Positions 20,505 to 41,410 of a stretch of DNA of 64,000 bases are shown here, one piece after another (within the stretch, counting starts at the first letter, position 1; each line of letters begins with the position of its first letter). The stretch is from an uncultured Actinomycetes bacterium (GTDB lineage: Bacteria; Actinomycetota; UBA4738; HRBIN12), in assembly GCA_963704885.1 (NCBI GenBank), contig CAVPIB010000004.1, positions 992,001 to 1,056,000 on the forward strand, written 5' to 3'. Below the pieces are notes generated by a model. That model did no database searches. It had not been told where the DNA came from and saw only the letters and a program-made list of their open reading frames with translations. Position numbers and translations under genes: made by a program.

Positions 20505-20891
20505 CTACTGGGGCACGCCGTCGACGAGCTCGATCACCCGGCTCCGGCCTCGCATGCAGTCGGGCGTCGCCTTGGCCTTGGCGAAGAAGAATCCGTCGCG
20601 CAGGCCCGTGTTCCCCATCGACCACACGCCAACCCGGCCTTGCTGCTCCGACGTGTCTGAGTTGCCCGTACGTTGGAACGGACCGTCGGCGCTGTCGGAC
20701 ATGAAGAGCCGCACGAGGCGTTCCCCGCGGCACCCGGGATCCGGGCTCTTGACCTTGCCGTGGAAATCGCCGTTGGGACCCTTGATCGTCACGATCGTCC
20801 TGGCGGCGGTACCCGCCGTGGCGAGCCCTGTGAACATCAGCGAACTCGCCGCGACGACCGCGACGAGCAGGAACGCCAACCTCGTCTTCAT
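20505..20891 (-). CDS. Small secreted protein with two Cys
   Basis: AAGGAG SD, signal peptide, FHGKVKS...C...R.V.LF. Confidence 0.75.
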   Translation of the reverse strand: MKTRLAFLLVAVVAASSLMFTGLATAGTAARTIVTIKGPNGDFHGKVKSPDPGCRGERLVRLFMSDSADGPFQRTGNSDTSEQQGRVGVWSMGNTGLRDGFFFAKAKATPDCMRGRSRVIELVDGVPQ

Positions 20892-20969
20892 CCAAACTCC
20901 TTCCGGGGGCAGACGCCCGCACTGAACCACTGGGCGTGAACAACAGTCAAGCTGGCTACTCGCGGCTCC

Positions 20970-21087: not shown

Positions 21088-21672
21088 CTAGGCGCCGGCC
21101 AGGTCGCCGCCGGCCCGAACGACCACATGAACGCGGTCCCCTTCACCCACCGAGCCCAGACCGTTGAACGTCGGACGCGCCCACCCGTTCATGCTGTCCA
21201 CCACGTAGCGGGGGACTGCGGTGACCGGAGTCTTCACGCGCGCTGGGGCCCTGGCGGCCTGGGCCCTCTCGCGTGGATCGACGCCCTCGCGGTGCTTGAT
21301 CGAGAGCAGTAGCCAGACGTAGAGCAGCAGCAGAGCCCCGAACACAGCCGTGAGCGTCCAGACGACGCGGAGTGGAGGAACCAGTCCGATCAGGAACGTC
21401 AACCCGATCGATTCGAGCAGGAACACCAACACCTTGCGGCGTCGCTCGCGGACCCGCGCTCGCCGTCGCTCCGCGGCCCCGACGAACCGGGCTCCCTTTC
21501 GGGGGGTGACGATCCAGCGCCCCTGACTGCCTTGAGCCTCCACGTGCGCCAACAACTCCATCCTGCGTTCGAAATCCTCGACGCTACGCGCCGCGGTGTG
21601 CCGCCGACGGTCGGTCGGCAGGAGGAACGCCACCCACATGATGCCCAAAGCGCCTAGGAGCAGCCAATCCAC
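21088..21672 (-). CDS. GlpR/SepX-like 3-TM divisome-associated membrane protein
   Basis: N-terminal TM, RSVEDFERRMELL, an Arg-rich RRRKV segment, then 2 TMs. Sits between tRNA-Ala and moaC/moeA/galU. AGGAGG SD. Confidence 0.7.
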   Translation of the reverse strand: MDWLLLGALGIMWVAFLLPTDRRRHTAARSVEDFERRMELLAHVEAQGSQGRWIVTPRKGARFVGAAERRRARVRERRRKVLVFLLESIGLTFLIGLVPPLRVVWTLTAVFGALLLLYVWLLLSIKHREGVDPRERAQAARAPARVKTPVTAVPRYVVDSMNGWARPTFNGLGSVGEGDRVHVVVRAGGDLAGA

Positions 21673-21706
21673 GCGCCCGCCTCCTGCCTGATGATCCCCG
21701 GTTCAG

Positions 21707-21753
21707 ACACAACATCTAGGCTGGCTCTGGAACGTAGCACCCACATATGGGGT
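21707..21753. promoter_or_regulatory. Tandem NrdR-box-like sites flanking a -10 element
   Basis: ACACAACATCTAGGCT (21707) and CACCCACATATGGGGT (21738), 31 bp apart. Minus-strand TACGTT at 21736-21731. Confidence 0.65.
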
Positions 21754-21813
21754 GGGAAAGCACATCGATGTGATTTTAGGAACTAATGCACAAGCGGGCT
21801 GGCGCGGAGGCGG

Positions 21814-22263
21814 CTACTCCGCCCGGTAGTCGCCGGACTTGCCGCCGGATTTCGCCAGCAGGCGCAACCCGTCGATCCGCGCGGCGCGATCGTAGGCCTT
21901 GGCCGTGTCGTACAGGCTGAGCGCGGCCACGGCCGCCGCGGTTAGCGCCTCCATCTCCACGCCCGTGCGGTCGTTCGCGCGCACGGTGGTCTCCACACGG
22001 ATGAGGCCGGTCGCGGGGTCGGGCGAGACCACCACCTCGGCGCCCGTCACTGCGATCGGGTGGCAGAACGGGAGCAGGTCGGGCGTGCGCTTCACGCCCA
22101 TCACCCCGGCGATCCTGGCGGCCTCGATCGGGTTGCCCTTCGGGGTGCCGGCTACCAGCTGCGCGCAGGCCTCGGGAGTCATGGTTATCACGCACTCGGC
22201 GGTGGCCTGGCGCTTGGTGACCGCCTTCTCGCCCACCTCCACGATCCGCGCCCGGTCACTCAC
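21814..22263 (-). CDS. moaC: Cyclic pyranopterin monophosphate synthase MoaC
   Basis: KG.P...ARIAG, LLPFCH, TGVEMEAL, KSGGKSG. Confidence 0.95.
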   Translation of the reverse strand: MSDRARIVEVGEKAVTKRQATAECVITMTPEACAQLVAGTPKGNPIEAARIAGVMGVKRTPDLLPFCHPIAVTGAEVVVSPDPATGLIRVETTVRANDRTGVEMEALTAAAVAALSLYDTAKAYDRAARIDGLRLLAKSGGKSGDYRAE

Positions 22264-22266
22264 GAC

Positions 22267-23529
22267 TCAGTCCTCCGCCGGGCGGAACACCATGACGCGG
22301 ACCTGCGAGCCGGCCGGCGCCGTGGCCGTCCCCACCGGGATCATGGCCAGTCCGTTGGCTCGAGCGACCGTCGAGATCAGGTTGGACCCGCGGGCGCCCG
22401 TCGGCGAAGCGGTCCAACCGTCGCCGCTGCGCTCCAACCGGACGCGAGCGAACTGCAGCTTGCCCCTGGGACCCGAGATCTCCTCGGACAGCGTCGCCGT
22501 CACCTCGGGCCGGTGGAGCTGCGTGCGGCCCATCATCTTGAGCACGGCCGGGCGCACGAAGATCTCGAAGCTCACGAACACGCTCACAGGGTTACCCGGC
22601 AGGCCGAAGAACGGCTTGCCTTCGATCTGGCCGAAGCCCTGCGGCATTCCGGGCTGCATCGCCACCTTGTAGAAATCCAGGTCGCCGCGGCGGAAGAACG
22701 CCGCCTTCACGACGTCGCGCTCCCCTACCGACACGCCTCCCGACGACACGAACGCGTCTGCCTGGATCACGTAGCTGAGCACCGTCTCGCGGAGCGATTC
22801 GACGTCGTCTTTGACTATTCCAGCGAGCACCGGCATGGCACCCAGCTCGCGCAGACCGGCGAAGAGCGTGTAGGCGTTGGAGTCGCGGATCTGACCGAAC
22901 TCCGGAGTCTCGGTGGGCGGGATCAGCTCGTCCCCGGTGGACAGCACGATCACGCGGGGACGCGGATGCACCATCGGGTGCGGGAACCCTGCGTTCGCCA
23001 GCAGGCCGAGTTCGGGGGGGCCCAGGCGCTTGCCTTCCGGCACCAGGATCTGCCCGCCCTTGACGTCCTCGCCCGCCGGCCGAACGTGCTTGCCGGCCGT
23101 GGGGGCGTCGAAGATCTGCACCATCTCACCGCCGGGCTCGGCGTTCTCGATCGGGACGACCGAGTCGGCGCCGGCGGGGATCGGCGCCCCGGTGGCGATC
23201 CGGATAGCTTCCCCGCCCCCCACCACCGCTTCGGGTCGCCGCCCGATCATGGCCCGTCCCACGATCTTCAGCTCCACCGGAGAGCCTGGGGTAGCGCCGA
23301 CCACGTCGGATGCTCGAACCGCGAACCCGTCCATCGCCGACGAAGCGAACTCCGGCAGGTCGCGCATGGCCACGACGTCTTCGGCCGAGACGCAGCCGTG
23401 AGCGTCCGTCAGGGGGAGCTGGAGCGGGGCCAGAGGTTGGATCTGAGACAACACCCGCTCCTGCGCATCCTCGACCGATAGGAGCCCGGTGACGTCGTCA
23501 TGGTCGTGGATCTGGCGGGTCGGGGGCAT
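22267..23529 (-). CDS. moeA: Molybdopterin molybdotransferase MoeA (gephyrin-like Glp)
   Basis: SAMDGFAV, IATGAPIP, STGDEL, SGGVSVG, LPGNP. TAGACT lies 6 nt before the ATG. Confidence 0.95.
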   Translation of the reverse strand: MPPTRQIHDHDDVTGLLSVEDAQERVLSQIQPLAPLQLPLTDAHGCVSAEDVVAMRDLPEFASSAMDGFAVRASDVVGATPGSPVELKIVGRAMIGRRPEAVVGGGEAIRIATGAPIPAGADSVVPIENAEPGGEMVQIFDAPTAGKHVRPAGEDVKGGQILVPEGKRLGPPELGLLANAGFPHPMVHPRPRVIVLSTGDELIPPTETPEFGQIRDSNAYTLFAGLRELGAMPVLAGIVKDDVESLRETVLSYVIQADAFVSSGGVSVGERDVVKAAFFRRGDLDFYKVAMQPGMPQGFGQIEGKPFFGLPGNPVSVFVSFEIFVRPAVLKMMGRTQLHRPEVTATLSEEISGPRGKLQFARVRLERSGDGWTASPTGARGSNLISTVARANGLAMIPVGTATAPAGSQVRVMVFRPAED

Positions 23530-23571
23530 GCGGGCAGTCTACCCGTGGCCGCGGAATGGCCAGGCCGCGGC

Positions 23572-24450
23572 TCAGGCCAGGTCGATGCGGTGGATCAGTT
23601 CCTTCAGGTAGTGAGCGAAGTCCTTGCCCACGTCCTCGCGATCGAGCGCCATCTCCACCGTCGCCTTCAGGTAGTCGAGCCTGTTCCCAACGTCGAACCG
23701 CCCGCCGTCGAGCCGGTACGCGTAGACGGCGTGCTCCTTGGCCAACAGGTTGATCGCGTCGGTCAGCTGGATCTCTCCGCCACGGCCGGGTTCCGTCTGA
23801 CGGAGCGCGTCGAAGATATCGGGCGTCAACACGTAGCGGCCGATAGCCGCCAGGTTCGATGGCGCGTCTTCCGGCGAGGGCTTCTCCACGATCGAAAGCA
23901 CGCGAGCCAGGTGCTCTTCGATGAACTCCGGCTCGATCGAGCCGTAGTGGCTGATGTCTTGGAGCGGGACCTCTTGGACGGCGATCACGCTGCGGCCGTA
24001 GCGCTCATGCATGCGAAGCATGTCCGACAGGAGCGGCACCGACCGGTGGATCAGATCGTCGCCCAGAAGGACCGCGAACGGCTCGTCGCCGATGTGATCC
24101 TCGGCCACCGCCACCGCGTGGCCCAGGCCGAGCGGGTCCTTCTGGCGGATGTAATGGATCGTGGCCATGTCGCTGATCTCTCGGACCTGCTTCAACTCGT
24201 CGAACTTCCCCTTGGACTCGAGGAAGTGCTCCAGCTCGATGGACCGGTCGAAGTGGTCCTCGATCGAGCGTTTTCCGCGACCGGTCACGATCAGGATGTC
24301 GGTGAGCCCCGCTCGCGCCGCTTCCTCCACCACGTACTGGATCGAGGGGGTGTCGACCACCGGCAGCATCTCTTTCGGCTGCGCCTTGGTGGCGGGCAGG
24401 AACCGGGTACCCAGGCCTGCGGCCGGTATCACGGCCTTCCTGATCGACAT
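23572..24450 (-). CDS. galU: UTP--glucose-1-phosphate uridylyltransferase
   Basis: KAVIPAAGLGTRFLPATKAQPKEMLP, LGLGHAV, VEKP, GEIQLTDAI. Confidence 0.97.
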   Translation of the reverse strand: MSIRKAVIPAAGLGTRFLPATKAQPKEMLPVVDTPSIQYVVEEAARAGLTDILIVTGRGKRSIEDHFDRSIELEHFLESKGKFDELKQVREISDMATIHYIRQKDPLGLGHAVAVAEDHIGDEPFAVLLGDDLIHRSVPLLSDMLRMHERYGRSVIAVQEVPLQDISHYGSIEPEFIEEHLARVLSIVEKPSPEDAPSNLAAIGRYVLTPDIFDALRQTEPGRGGEIQLTDAINLLAKEHAVYAYRLDGGRFDVGNRLDYLKATVEMALDREDVGKDFAHYLKELIHRIDLA

Positions 24451-24527
24451 CCCGGTCCCTCCCTTCGCCCCGGCGGCGGAGGGAACGAGTCTATGCCCTC
24501 CCGGGTCGTTCGAAGGTCCGCCGGTGG

Positions 24528-24701
24528 TCATCCGTCGTCCCTCCATGAGGGCGCGTCGTCGGCCTCGGGAAGCTCCAGCAGGCGCACGTCGTGCGGTTCG
24601 AGTGAGGGATCTGCGGTCGAGGCGGCGGCCTCGATGGGGCCGACCAGCAGCTCCAGGTCGGGTCGACGTCGCGCCTCCCTGCCGAGTGTGGACCCGCGCA
24701 T
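24528..24701 (-). CDS. Possible small acidic protein (57 aa)
   Basis: GAGGAGG SD before the ATG at 24701. No recognisable motif. Confidence 0.4.
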   Translation of the reverse strand: MRGSTLGREARRRPDLELLVGPIEAAASTADPSLEPHDVRLLELPEADDAPSWRDDG

Positions 24702-24912
24702 GCCGAACCTCCTCGTGAACGCCGCCCCGGTCGGCGCTCCGCGGGCGGCGCGCCGTGGTCCTTCTCGGTGATGACGGTAGCCGGGTGTGACCACGCGAAC
24801 ATCGTCCAGAGGGCTCATCCGAAAGGCGGATGGCGCAACCATCGAAAGGCCCGGTCGAACGCCAGAACCGCATCCGGGACCTGCGGAAACCCTCCGCTAC
24901 ACTCGTCCGGTC

Positions 24913-25266
24913 ATGCCCACGTACGAGTACATGTGCCGCAGCTGCGGCCACACGTTCGACATCGTCCAAGCCATGCGCGACGACTCCATGACCGTCTGCC
25001 CCGAGTGCGGCGGCGAGCTCCGCAAGGTGTTCGCTCCACCGTCGATAGCGTTCAAGGGCTCGGGCTTCTACGCCACCGACCATGGGAAGAAGTCGAAGAA
25101 GGAGTCCGAGAAGTCTGGCGAGAAGTCTGGCGAGAAGTCTGGCGACACCGCGGCCGCGAAGTCCGATGTTAAGTCCGATAAGCCGGCGGAGTCGACCGGA
25201 TCCAAAGACGCTCCGAAACCCGCGCCCGAGAAGAAGCCGACGAAGAGCTCGGAGGCCACATCGTGA
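24913..25266 (+). CDS. FmdB family zinc-ribbon protein
   Basis: MPTYEYMCRSCG...CPECGG...FKGSGFYATD, followed by a K/S/E-rich tail. Confidence 0.95.
   Translation: MPTYEYMCRSCGHTFDIVQAMRDDSMTVCPECGGELRKVFAPPSIAFKGSGFYATDHGKKSKKESEKSGEKSGEKSGDTAAAKSDVKSDKPAESTGSKDAPKPAPEKKPTKSSEATS
25108..25143 (+). repeat. 12-bp tandem repeat x3 (EKSG)
   Basis: GAGAAGTCTGGC x3 within the FmdB tail. Confidence 0.9.
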
Positions 25267-40444: not shown

Positions 40445-41410
40445 ATGGGCCTCGGATCCGATCCGTTCGCCGCCGACGGGGAGTGGCTGAAGACCGCTCT
40501 GCACACCCACACGTCCGTCTCCGACGGCGAGCTGGAGCCGGGAGCCGTTGCGGCGCACTACGAGTGGGCTGGGTTCGATGTCTTGGCGATCACTGATCAT
40601 TGGACCCTCACGTATCTCCCTTCAACCGAGAACCTCCTCGTCATCACGGGCGCCGAGCTCGCCGTCGATCCGATGGGACCGGGTCGCTACACGGAGATCT
40701 TGGCCATCGGCATCGACGACATCCCCCAGGATCCAGGCGGGGATCGCGCCCACTGGGAGACGATCGACGGCTACGAGTTCAAGACGTTCCCGGATCTCAC
40801 GGTGGCGGCGGCCAACATCACGGGACAGGGAGGTGCCGCCTTCGTGGCGCATCCCTATTGGAGCGGACTCACGCCCGAGGTCATCTTGGAGGCGCAGGGG
40901 CTCACTGGCATCGAGCTCTTCAACGCATCGTCGCACCGCGAGAACGACCGCGGCGATTCCTCCTACATCTGGGACCTAGCGCTCGAGGCCGGTATGTCGC
41001 TCTCAGGGATCGCCGCCGATGACAGCCACTACCCGCTGTTCGACATCGGTGACGCCTGGACCATGGTGCGTGCCGCGGAGCGCACGCAGGAGGCCGTGCT
41101 CGATGCGCTCCGAGAACACCGGACCTACGCGTCGAGTGGCCCGGTCATGCACGACGTCGCTCGCGAGGGGAACGTCGTCGAGGTGAGATGCAGCCCGTGC
41201 CCGTCGGTCGTGTTGCACTCGCGTTACCAGGAGGGCTGGTCGGTGCGCGCCGACCATCGTGGGCGCCAAGAGTCCGCGCGGATCCTGGAGCGAGACGACC
41301 GAGGGATGATCGTTCGCGCTTCGTTCCAGCCGCCGGTCGACGACCTGCCGTTCGTCCGCGTGGTGGCGACCGACGAGCAGGGTCGATCCGCCTGGACGAA
41401 CCCCGTCTAG
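40445..41410 (+). CDS. PHP-domain metallohydrolase (CehA/McbA-like)
   Basis: LHTHT..SDG, ITDH, AHP, IELFN, DDSH. Confidence 0.88.
   Translation: MGLGSDPFAADGEWLKTALHTHTSVSDGELEPGAVAAHYEWAGFDVLAITDHWTLTYLPSTENLLVITGAELAVDPMGPGRYTEILAIGIDDIPQDPGGDRAHWETIDGYEFKTFPDLTVAAANITGQGGAAFVAHPYWSGLTPEVILEAQGLTGIELFNASSHRENDRGDSSYIWDLALEAGMSLSGIAADDSHYPLFDIGDAWTMVRAAERTQEAVLDALREHRTYASSGPVMHDVAREGNVVEVRCSPCPSVVLHSRYQEGWSVRADHRGRQESARILERDDRGMIVRASFQPPVDDLPFVRVVATDEQGRSAWTNPV

Follow-up and report, generated by a model that had tools for sequence, protein, structure and literature searches.

A conserved two-box NrdR-type operator over the predicted promoter of a SepX/GlpR-like membrane protein gene in uncultured Actinomycetota

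The window analyzed in the present study, a 64-kb stretch of DNA, carries at positions 21707-21753 (47 bp) what is probably a canonical two-box NrdR operator, covering the sigma-70-type promoter of a monocistronic gene whose product is a SepX/GlpR-like protein with three transmembrane (TM) helices (Table 1). NrdR is described in the literature as specific for ribonucleotide reductase (RNR). An unchanged, perfect box pair 5' of a non-RNR gene in 79 species-level genomes is a clear counter-example to that specificity at the level of sequence.

In all, 167 relatives were found, and 80 were taken into the analysis (L001-L080); the complete chromosome OY969099.1 is among the genomes behind these. 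One of these, L049, came without upstream DNA and so 79 loci were scored; "the 80 sequences" below are the window and these 79 loci.

Table 1. Features of the operator region and the adjoining genes in the window.
Feature	Position	Strand	Basis or detail
MoeA/Glp-like gene, two genes upstream of the target	22267..23529	-	Pfam MoeA_N, MoCF_biosynth, MoeA_C
moaC, upstream neighbor of the target	21814..22263	-	Pfam MoaC 1.3e-44; NCBIfam PRK09364 174 bits, cut-off 162
CTTGTGCATTAGTTCC, window version of the TGTGA-N4-GTTC element kept further upstream in most relatives	21779..21794	-	Sequence
Imperfect 16-bp palindrome ATCACA-N4-TGTGCT (gene orientation), perfect core 21761-21772	21759..21774	.	Abuts the -35
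Predicted weak -35, TTTCCC, 17 nt upstream of the -10	21754..21759	-	Placed from the -10 and the upstream sequences of relatives
Distal (upstream) NrdR-type box	21738..21753	-	6/6 critical positions; gene orientation ACCCCATATGTGGGTG
15-bp inter-box linker with -10 hexamer TACGTT (21731-21736)	21723..21737	-	Sequence
Proximal NrdR-type box	21707..21722	-	6/6 critical positions; gene orientation AGCCTAGATGTTGTGT
Shine-Dalgarno AGGAGG, 8 nt before the GTG start at 21672	21680..21685	-	Sequence; GGAGGCTGG-type sequence conserved upstream in relatives
Target gene, 194-aa membrane protein, three TM helices, remotely SepX/GlpR-like	21088..21672	-	ORF, hydropathy, HMM

The box pair and its predicted promoter

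The first-pass annotation of this DNA had described two 16-mers with the core C.A.AT.T.G, 31 bp apart and astride a -10 element, TACGTT, and the window sequence agrees with that description to the base. On the plus strand the proximal box reads ACACAACATCTAGGCT and the distal box CACCCACATATGGGGT; their starts are 31 bp apart, giving a 15-bp linker, and the pair lies 35 nt 5' of the GTG-started target gene. By the rule taken from PMC13584703, NrdR boxes are defined by six positions (C4, A6, A8, T9, T11 and G13), all of which are present in both 16-mers, for 12 of 12 critical positions. In our own count, the five bound operators in Table 1 of PMC13584703 score 11, 12, 12, 11 and 11 of 12 by the same rule. 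The first 13 bases of the proximal box (plus strand) are those of the synthetic consensus box of PMC13584703, and 6 of the 8 bases between its C4 and G13 are A or T (own count). The distal box carries C5 and G12 and has 5/8 A/T (62.5%) between C4 and G13, which is at the minimum of about 63% stated in PMC13584703. In that work, changes of the C5/G12 type put in both boxes lowered affinity approximately tenfold.

Linker length also falls within the published range. The available text of PMC12051234 and PMC13584703 gives 15-16 bp as the norm, and PMC12051234, in the part available, describes a functional short linker class of 14-17 bp and reports a Kd for ScoNrdR of 154 nM with a 14-bp linker versus 45 nM with 15 bp, about 3.4 times weaker. 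The linkers of the window (15 bp) and of its relatives (14-15 bp) belong to this short class.

The bare core C.A.AT.T.G occurs 11 times in the window versus 6.19 +/- 2.33 times in shuffled sequences, and 4 of 100 shuffles reach 11. Apart from the operator, no pair in the window reaches 11 of 12 critical positions at a spacing of 30-33 or 40-43, and when the window was block-shuffled 3000 times, only 5 shuffles gave any 12/12 pair at a spacing of 30-32. Scoring with a position weight matrix (PWM) had been suggested with the first-pass annotation; using a PWM from the ten experimentally bound boxes in Table 1 of PMC13584703, the two boxes were the two top-ranking 16-mers of the whole window. The proximal box scored 19.49 bits (rank 1) and the distal box 12.02 bits (rank 2), with a background over all window 16-mers of mean -17.15 and sd 6.45, and the pair score was 31.5 versus 10.9 at the next independent place in the window. 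Across 852,030 bp of loci, 79 pairs were found at the site and two others elsewhere, both 11/12 at a spacing of 33. Similarly, the published regular expression of PMC13584703 gave 79 matches at the site and 3 elsewhere in the loci. An nhmmer model of the operator, run at E-values up to 10, detected no further match in the window or the loci, and no second operator was found nearby in either. As a positive control for the pair rule, 10 kb around E. coli nrdHIEF gave exactly one pair, 120 nt 5' of nrdH.

The sequence AACGTA at 21731-21736, inside the linker, reads TACGTT on the minus strand, where it is preceded by TGC and is therefore predicted to be an extended -10 (TGn-TACGTT). A TAnnnT hexamer directly follows the distal box in all 80 sequences, and parsimony changes across the six positions of this hexamer number 0, 0, 7, 9, 13 and 0. 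Most relatives have TTGAGC or TTGTGA in the place of the -35, and a consensus promoter scan returned no full sigma-70 match. In the predicted promoter the distal box occupies most of the -35/-10 spacer, and the proximal box should span approximately +1 to +16 of the transcript, taking the start predicted from the -10. The boxes overlap the predicted RNA polymerase site or transcription start. A search of 21500-22000 with Rfam at a permissive E-value gave 0 matches to known RNA elements, and an RNA reading does not fit because the distal box lies upstream of the predicted -10.

The target gene and its relation to SepX and GlpR

The target ORF is a real gene, with a GTG start, a GC3 of 0.82, a Shine-Dalgarno sequence and 1327 homologues. 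Hydropathy peaks centered at residues 10-12, 88-92 and 106-118 mark three hydrophobic segments. The AF2 model (mean pLDDT 60.6, pTM 0.27) is confident only in a helical stretch at about residues 71-130, where mean pLDDT is 72-96 per 10-residue block. The first loop is basic (net +11) and highly conserved, with an invariant GRWI.TPRK motif. A Pfam search of the target gave no match, and among solved structures no relative was found (best E-value 0.37). A search for fused or longer forms returned two matches; one of them has the Pfam domains MoeA_C and MoaC and probably results from the merging of separate genes during gene calling.

The gene order galU, moeA/glp-like, moaC, target is found wherever enough upstream DNA is present in the loci. 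Genes downstream of the target vary among loci, with no RNR gene among them, and no nrdR, nrd/RNR or ATP-cone gene occurs among the scanned ORFs of the window or the neighbors in the fetched loci. The ORF at 20505-20930 was considered as an operon partner and rejected, having no Pfam match and no counterpart in the 80 loci.

The first-pass annotation called the target a putative cell-division gene, and a divisome protein of SepX/GlpR type is a plausible reading of its sequence. The part of this claim that holds is the three-TM layout and the presence of a MoeA/Glp-like gene nearby; the match to the family models is remote, SepX_GlpR_2 (NCBIfam) scoring only 27 bits (E 4e-6) against a cut-off of 150, and the neighboring protein scores higher with E. 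coli MoeA than with C. glutamicum Glp. It is possible, though less likely than not in our estimate, that NrdR binds and represses here a lineage-specific three-TM protein with some other role, for example one tied to the adjacent molybdenum-cofactor genes (moeA-like, moaC), and that no link between dNTPs and septation exists. None of 27 more distant relatives reaches the SepX/GlpR cut-off (4 give weak matches). Among solved structures, the MoeA/Glp-like protein scores 236.8 bits with E. coli MoeA and 191.6 bits with C. glutamicum Glp (8BVE). Additionally, moaC stands between the MoeA-like gene and the target, the HMM scores are far below cut-offs, and size and loop charge differ from those of C. 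glutamicum GlpR, a protein of about 340 aa with a long acidic disordered IDR1, whereas the target has 194 aa and a basic, conserved first loop.

In contrast, SepX/GlpR models are the only families matched by the target's own family, and SepX_GlpR_2 is matched weakly, always below cut-off, by 16 of 16 members; furthermore, the atlas lead for the target points to Pfam GlpR. The topology is that described for C. glutamicum GlpR and Streptomyces SepX, with three TM helices and two cytoplasmic stretches, and in those systems, as here, a MoeA-family gene is found nearby, downstream of galU. For the MoeA/Glp-like neighbor the best-scoring NCBIfam model is Glp_gephyrin (437 bits, cut-off 475), ahead of MoeA_actino (402 bits, cut-off 560). 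Low HMM scores are also to be expected because, according to the available text of PMC8748795, GlpR/SepX homologues have less than 10% identical residues in common. The part of PMC10522489 available describes GlpR as very divergent and identified with the aid of its gene neighborhood, next to glp.

Conservation of the operator and competing readings of the motif

Conservation upstream of orthologues had been proposed as a check on the box pair, and the outcome is uniform. Every one of the 79 loci that include upstream DNA has a 12/12 pair near -80 relative to the start codon, with 33-35 nt between the pair and that codon. Positions 4, 6, 8, 9, 11 and 13 are identical in both boxes in all 80 sequences, and positions 5 and 7 of the distal box vary freely. 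On a 69-tip tree, parsimony assigns 0 changes to the 12 critical positions and up to 23 to interleaved positions; in the distal box alone, 0 changes at critical positions compare with 76 over the other ten, including 16 and 23 at positions 5 and 7. Each of the 12 critical positions carries 2.00 bits of information, versus 0.17 bits per column far upstream. A 15-bp linker is found in 12 of the 80 sequences (the window and 11 loci) and a 14-bp linker in the other 68. An architecture with boxes three helical turns apart, at a constant distance from the start codon, is retained across the lineage.

The genomes that conserve the pair are 79 species-level genomes and represent a broad lineage of uncultured Actinomycetota.

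In at least three loci (L002, L009 and L071) a gene on the opposite strand lies between moaC and the target, and the pair is still located about 80 nt before the start codon of the target. Because the pair stays with the target where moaC is separated from it, we conclude that the operator belongs to the target gene.

These putative operators can be compared with those of S. coelicolor nrdRJ and nrdAB and of E. coli nrdAB, nrdHIEF and nrdDG, which share with the window two 16-bp, partly palindromic boxes, the six positions and a 15-bp linker (PMC13584703). As described in the available text of PMC9110341 and PMC13584703, the boxes of the same operators also cover the RNA polymerase site and the transcription start, the latter being predicted in our case. 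With S. coelicolor nrdRJ, in gene orientation, the proximal box of the window shares 12/16 bases with box 2 and the distal box 10/16 with box 1 (own count). The systems differ in that the gene here encodes a small membrane protein and not an RNR or NrdR, and that relatives mostly have a 14-bp linker.

The first-pass reading of the boxes as NrdR sites agrees with the six positions, the linker length, the PWM rank, the place over the -10 and the conservation in 79 of 79 loci, and the interpretation as a putative NrdR-type operator is well supported. It is improbable that the motif is read by a different regulator with a need for the same six positions and the three-turn spacing, such as a lineage-specific Zn-ribbon paralogue. 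Such a regulator would fit a target outside the RNR genes and the 14-bp linker of most relatives, which borders on the usual 15-16 bp; however, conservation mirrors the NrdR logo position by position (4, 6, 8, 9, 11 and 13 fixed, 5 and 7 free), and the proximal box equals the published consensus over 13 consecutive bases. We know of no other regulator with this motif. Finally, a chance resemblance, or a decaying relic of an nrd promoter without present function, is so improbable as to be set aside, since this reading has in its favor that single cores are common in the window but is contradicted by the conservation data, with all 79 promoters at 12/12, 0 changes on the tree and saturated flanks, and such a pair in 64 kb came from as few as 5 of 3000 shuffles.

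Proposed regulation and neighboring elements

Based on the mechanism described for S. coelicolor and E. coli, we hypothesize that when dATP rises, NrdR tetramers carrying dATP and ATP would occupy the two boxes, introduce a kink in the DNA at each of them and exclude RNA polymerase. With ATP only, NrdR would form oligomers unable to bind DNA and the target gene would be transcribed. The gene would in this way be switched together with the ribonucleotide reductase genes, following the demand for DNA precursors. More tentatively, the product may be the SepX/GlpR-type membrane receptor of the divisome/elongasome in this lineage, in which case septum formation would be linked through the operator to deoxynucleotide status.

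We consider it possible, with less than even confidence, that NrdR is not purely an RNR repressor and that its full dATP/ATP-sensing, two-box mechanism acts lineage-wide on the promoter of a SepX/GlpR-type divisome/elongasome receptor. If the target is such a receptor, the operator would tie the actinobacterial division machinery directly, at the level of transcription, to the dATP/ATP ratio. Synthesis of a septum-organizing protein would then follow DNA precursor demand, amounting to a nucleotide-pool checkpoint on division that is independent of the SOS response. According to the first-pass annotation, such a link is not known to have been described; our literature search of main texts likewise found no paper joining NrdR with SepX or divisome GlpR and no transcriptional link from dATP/ATP to division.

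In the available text of one genome-wide study of E. coli and P. aeruginosa, box pairs are reported at RNR operons only (bioRxiv 10.1101/2025.03.28.645925), and the large NrdR survey covered only the 500 nt upstream of RNR operons (PMC13584703). Outside RNR operons, the main texts that we found report single boxes only, at topA in Pseudomonas aeruginosa and at dnaA in Shewanella. These resemble the present case in having an NrdR-type motif 5' of a gene outside ribonucleotide reduction, whereas here a full pair with canonical spacing is retained across 79 species-level genomes.

For a SepX/GlpR-family gene, regulation at the promoter has a precedent in Actinomycetota. The available text of PMC10243135 describes that Streptomyces venezuelae sepX is activated by WhiA, together with WhiB, at a GACAC upstream of the -35, and that its transcript is leaderless. 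In contrast, the target is predicted to have a leader of about 50 nt with a Shine-Dalgarno sequence, and conservation centers on boxes of repressor type around the -10. In the 60 nt 5' of the distal box, GACAC/GTGTC is present in 7 of the 80 sequences; its sole copy in the window (21705-21709, plus strand) shares bases with the end of the proximal box and lies 3' of the -10. Activation by WhiA like that of Streptomyces sepX was therefore rejected, since GACAC is not conserved upstream of the -35.

The perfect palindrome that the first-pass annotation placed at 21761-21772 is present as CACATCGATGTG and occurs once in the window. Its C and G are separated by 6 or 10 bp, where an NrdR box has 8-9, and on this ground it was rejected as a third box; the imperfect palindrome around it (21759-21774) is probably the site of a second regulator. 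The TGTGA-N4-GTTC element, as a regular expression, matches 53 of the 80 sequences, and in 51 of these its offset from the distal box is 39-40 nt. As a long-spacer NrdR box this element was also rejected: under the loose regular expression from the literature it forms a pair with the distal box only in L029 and L077, and its majority form breaks the rule. In 77 of the 80 sequences, GATGT stands at a constant distance of 13-14 nt 5' of the distal box.

Sequence and specificity of the box pair

The first-pass annotation had placed two 16-bp NrdR boxes ahead of a putative cell-division gene, and both their letters and their coordinates proved exact (ACACAACATCTAGGCT, proximal; CACCCACATATGGGGT, distal), as did the distance of 31 bp between box starts, which leaves a 15-bp linker. 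According to the published NrdR box rule (PMC13584703), each box has six conserved positions, C4, A6, A8, T9, T11 and G13, and 15-16 bp separate the two boxes; C4 and G13 are reported as critical and A6 and T11 as important, and the stretch between C4 and G13 needs about 63% A/T. All six positions are present in both boxes of the window, and A/T between C4 and G13 amounts to 6/8 in one box and 5/8 in the other, the latter sitting at the published limit. Additionally, the first 13 bases of the box at 21707 are those of the synthetic consensus box of the same study. Counted by the same rule, the five bound operators in its Table 1 hold 11, 12, 12, 11 and 11 of the 12 positions, and thus the window pair, with 12/12, equals the best of the five.

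A PWM was built from the ten bound boxes of that table, symmetrised, with the window composition as background. Among all 16-mers of the window (mean -17.15, sd 6.45) the two boxes took ranks 1 and 2, at 19.49 and 12.02 bits, and the pair scores 31.5 versus 10.9 at the next independent place. A low PWM score, one of the outcomes that the first-pass annotation had named as refuting its reading, was thus not seen at either box. The third-best 16-mer, CTCCTACATCTGGGAC (11.78 bits), lies inside ORF 40445-41410 without a partner box and is probably a chance match.

Chance was also weighed for the pair itself. The bare core is common in the window (11 observed versus 6.19 expected), but a 12/12 pair at spacing 30-32 arises in only 5 of 3000 block shuffles of the window. 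No other pair in the window reaches 11 of 12 positions. With a rule of at least 11/12 positions at spacing 30-33 or 40-43, 10 kb around E. coli nrdHIEF, used as a positive control, gave a single pair, which is the operator already known 120 nt ahead of nrdH, and 852,030 bp of relatives' loci gave 79 pairs at the target site and 2 elsewhere (both 11/12, spacing 33). The regular expression given in the methods of PMC13584703 is looser; in the loci it matched 79 times at the site and 3 times outside it, and in the window at two places, the target operator and a weak one at 2339. An nhmmer model of 60 distinct operators, whose training sequences match by construction, gave, up to an E-value of 10, no further match in either the window or the loci. 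The observation is confirmed as real and lies far beyond chance.

Conservation and gene neighbourhood

A contig scan with alignment of the target protein kept 80 of 167 relatives, at 58-89% identity. One locus (L049) begins within the target gene and was left out, so that 79 carry upstream DNA. A 12/12 pair is present in 79/79 of these, ending 33-35 nt ahead of the start codon, and the conservation upstream of orthologues on which the first-pass annotation had staked its reading is borne out. The spacing is 31 in 11 loci and the window and 30 (14-bp linker) in the other 68. In a tree of three concatenated proteins (69 tips, 68 loci and the window; 11 loci with incomplete glp or moaC were left out), the spacing-31 sequences form one clade. 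The available portion of PMC12051234 describes a functional linker class of 14-17 bp, in which the 14-bp linker of the 68 loci falls, and ScoNrdR binding about 3.4x weaker at 14 than at 15 bp.

The pattern is the NrdR logo, reproduced by natural variation and not by shared ancestry. The 80 sequences (79 loci and the window) hold 35 distinct distal and 15 distinct proximal boxes, with positions 4, 6, 8, 9, 11 and 13 invariant in 80/80; distal position 5 is A in 9, C in 30 and T in 41, and distal position 7 is C in 22, G in 24 and T in 34. At the 12 critical positions the information content reaches 2.00 bits; it is 1.17 (distal) and 1.62 (proximal) at non-critical positions, 0.53 in the leader and 0.17 far upstream. 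Fitch parsimony over the 69 tips gave 0 changes at the 12 critical positions versus 76 distal and 25 proximal changes at the others, and, for every one of the 20 bases that follow the proximal box, 6-19 changes.

Features of the window, and of relatives' loci where a locus (L) is named
Feature	Coordinates	Strand	Remarks
galU ORF	23572-25083	minus	GalU domain from residue 214
MoeA/Glp-like gene	22267-23529	minus	
moaC	21814-22263	minus	
moaC-target gap			141 bp
TGTGA-N4-GTTC element	21779-21794		loci: about 39-40 nt upstream of distal box
Palindrome ATCACA-N4-TGTGAT	21759-21774		core 21761-21772; abuts predicted -35
Distal box	21738-21753		
Proximal box	21707-21722		
GACAC (WhiA core motif)	21705-21709	plus	overlaps gene-proximal end of proximal box
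Target ORF, 194 aa	21088-21672	minus	GTG start; Shine-Dalgarno AGGAGG 8 nt upstream
ORF, 141 aa	20505-20930	minus	next after target; good GC3
NrdR-like 16-mer	40960-40975		
GT1 glycosyltransferase-GH130 fusion	L009 3388-5832; L071 3358-5835	opposite	between moaC and target
Peptidase_M15_4	L002 5110-5826	opposite	between moaC and target

The window has a high GC content (67.8%). Its minus-strand order, galU, MoeA/Glp-like gene, moaC, target, is kept in every locus with enough upstream DNA. In the longest galU ORF, 213 codons come before the GalU domain, and this long upstream part overlaps a plus-strand ORF (23500-24771) that has no family match; galU itself probably begins much later. Some loci have additional DNA between moaC and the target. 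In L004, L009, L010 and L071 it measures about 3.3-3.7 kb, and in L002, L003 and L005-L007 about 0.9-1.5 kb; insert gene content was read in L002, L009 and L071. The box pair still lies about 80 nt ahead of the target start codon in every insert-bearing locus. The genes 3' of the target vary by clade, and no RNR gene was found downstream of it among the neighbours in the loci. Since the pair stays with the target despite inserts and variable downstream genes, the operator belongs to the 194-aa gene, which would have its own promoter and is probably monocistronic. The 141-aa ORF that follows in the window had no Pfam match and no tblastn counterpart across the 80 loci, and is either genome-specific or no gene.

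Directly 3' of the target, L015 (6774-7694) and L016 (7029-7694) carry a CAP12/Pycsar-type TIR-domain gene, which suggests that a small defence island sits at this variable junction. L034 is labelled Planctomycetaceae but does not differ from the Actinomycetota loci in gene order or operator, and its contig is probably mis-binned.

Predicted promoter and adjoining elements

The -10 TACGTT that had been claimed between the boxes is there, as AACGTA at 21731-21736 on the opposite strand. A TAnnnT hexamer stands right behind the distal box in 80/80 sequences, with 0, 0, 7, 9, 13 and 0 parsimony changes across it. TGC precedes TACGTT on the target's strand, giving an extended -10 whose TG is supplied by box positions 14-15. 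The predicted -35, 17 bases upstream, is a weak TTTCCC in the window, against TTGAGC or TTGTGA in the majority of relatives. With the -35 so placed, the distal box would fill the spacer, the -10 would lie within the linker and the proximal box would start about 8 nt after the -10. Transcription likely starts near 21722, at the start of the proximal box, with a predicted leader of about 50 nt. A simple consensus promoter scan called no promoter at the target's upstream region.

The palindrome reported in the first-pass annotation (CACATCGATGTG) is present as the core of a longer one, which occurs nowhere else in the window. As an NrdR box it breaks the NrdR rule. In 77/80 sequences its GATGT half keeps a distance of 13-14 nt to the distal box, and the palindrome probably marks a second regulator of the candidate promoter. 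The TGTGA-N4-GTTC element is found in 53/80 sequences, at an offset of 39-40 nt in 51 of the 53, as TGTGAAAAAGTTCT in 27 sequences and as a 7+2+7 palindrome in L029. It is centred about 61 nt ahead of the predicted transcript start and resembles a CRP/FNR-type half-site. GTGTC or GACAC occurs within the proximal box plus 8 nt in 39/80 sequences; the GACAC of the window is downstream of the -10 and therefore not in an activator position.

The target protein and a possible link to deoxynucleotide status

The claim that the target is a glpR/sepX-like cell-division gene held for topology and fell short on family score. The protein had no match in the Pfam library, and NCBIfam SepX_GlpR_2 gave 27 bits (E 4e-6), far under its cut-off of 150. 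That model matched 16/16 aligned family members (best E-value 5.3e-9). A profile search gave 933 representative relatives with an E-value of 0.001 or less; among 27 longer or more distant ones scanned, none reached the SepX/GlpR cut-off and 4 had weak matches. An ESM atlas lead (cluster score 0.91) has Pfam GlpR in 12% of members. Homologues number 1327, and all 120 among the matches listed come from uncultured Actinomycetota MAGs or metagenome sources.

SepX/GlpR proteins, as described in the accessible parts of PMC8748795 and PMC10522489, have three TM segments, about 340 aa and two cytoplasmic, largely unstructured regions, and diverge so highly that gene context helps to find them. The target resembles them in its three hydrophobic segments and nearby MoeA-family gene, but has 194 aa. 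Its first loop is basic (net +11) and its tail mildly so (net +4). AF2 gave a poor model (mean pLDDT 60.6, pTM 0.27), confident solely at a helical stretch at about residues 71-130, with a disordered tail. The best NCBIfam model for the neighbour is Glp_gephyrin (437 bits, below the cut-off of 475), and among solved structures E. coli MoeA (236.8 bits) outscores C. glutamicum Glp 8BVE (191.6 bits); the neighbour may be a form not fully departed from molybdenum-cofactor synthesis. The context fits SepX/GlpR, with the caveat that the neighbour is nearer MoeA among solved structures and that moaC stands between it and the target. For these reasons the target is called SepX/GlpR-like here and not a SepX/GlpR member.

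The 12/12 rule, the linker, the PWM scores and the conservation all agree with the NrdR-box reading. Taken together, we consider it quite probable that the promoter of this gene for a SepX/GlpR-like membrane protein carries a working NrdR operator, kept throughout a broad, uncultured lineage of actinobacteria. According to the available text of PMC9110341, when dATP rises an NrdR tetramer with dATP and ATP occupies both boxes, with a kink of about 90 degrees in the DNA at either one. Plentiful dATP would then repress the target gene together with RNR genes, and demand for DNA precursors would allow its expression. That dNTP status gates septation is a more tentative proposal, somewhat short of likely, as this step rests on a remote family assignment.

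The two-box NrdR operators described so far all belong to RNR operons or nrdR, and the non-RNR cases, topA and dnaA, have one box of uncertain function, in contrast to the full pair here. For E. coli and P. aeruginosa, the accessible part of a 2025 preprint (bioRxiv 10.1101/2025.03.28.645925) gives box pairs at RNR operons only. A large NrdR-box survey covered regions upstream of RNR operons only (PMC13584703) and therefore could not have caught the target's operator. Literature searches for NrdR with SepX, divisome GlpR or cell division gave no joining paper among the matches listed; the entries naming both NrdR and GlpR appear to concern an E. coli transcription-factor library and the genome of a Pseudomonas. 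WhiA and WhiB activate sepX in Streptomyces (PMC10243135, in the part available), and WhiA represses nrdR (PMC3781837, likewise), a link in the opposite direction to the predicted NrdR operator of the target.
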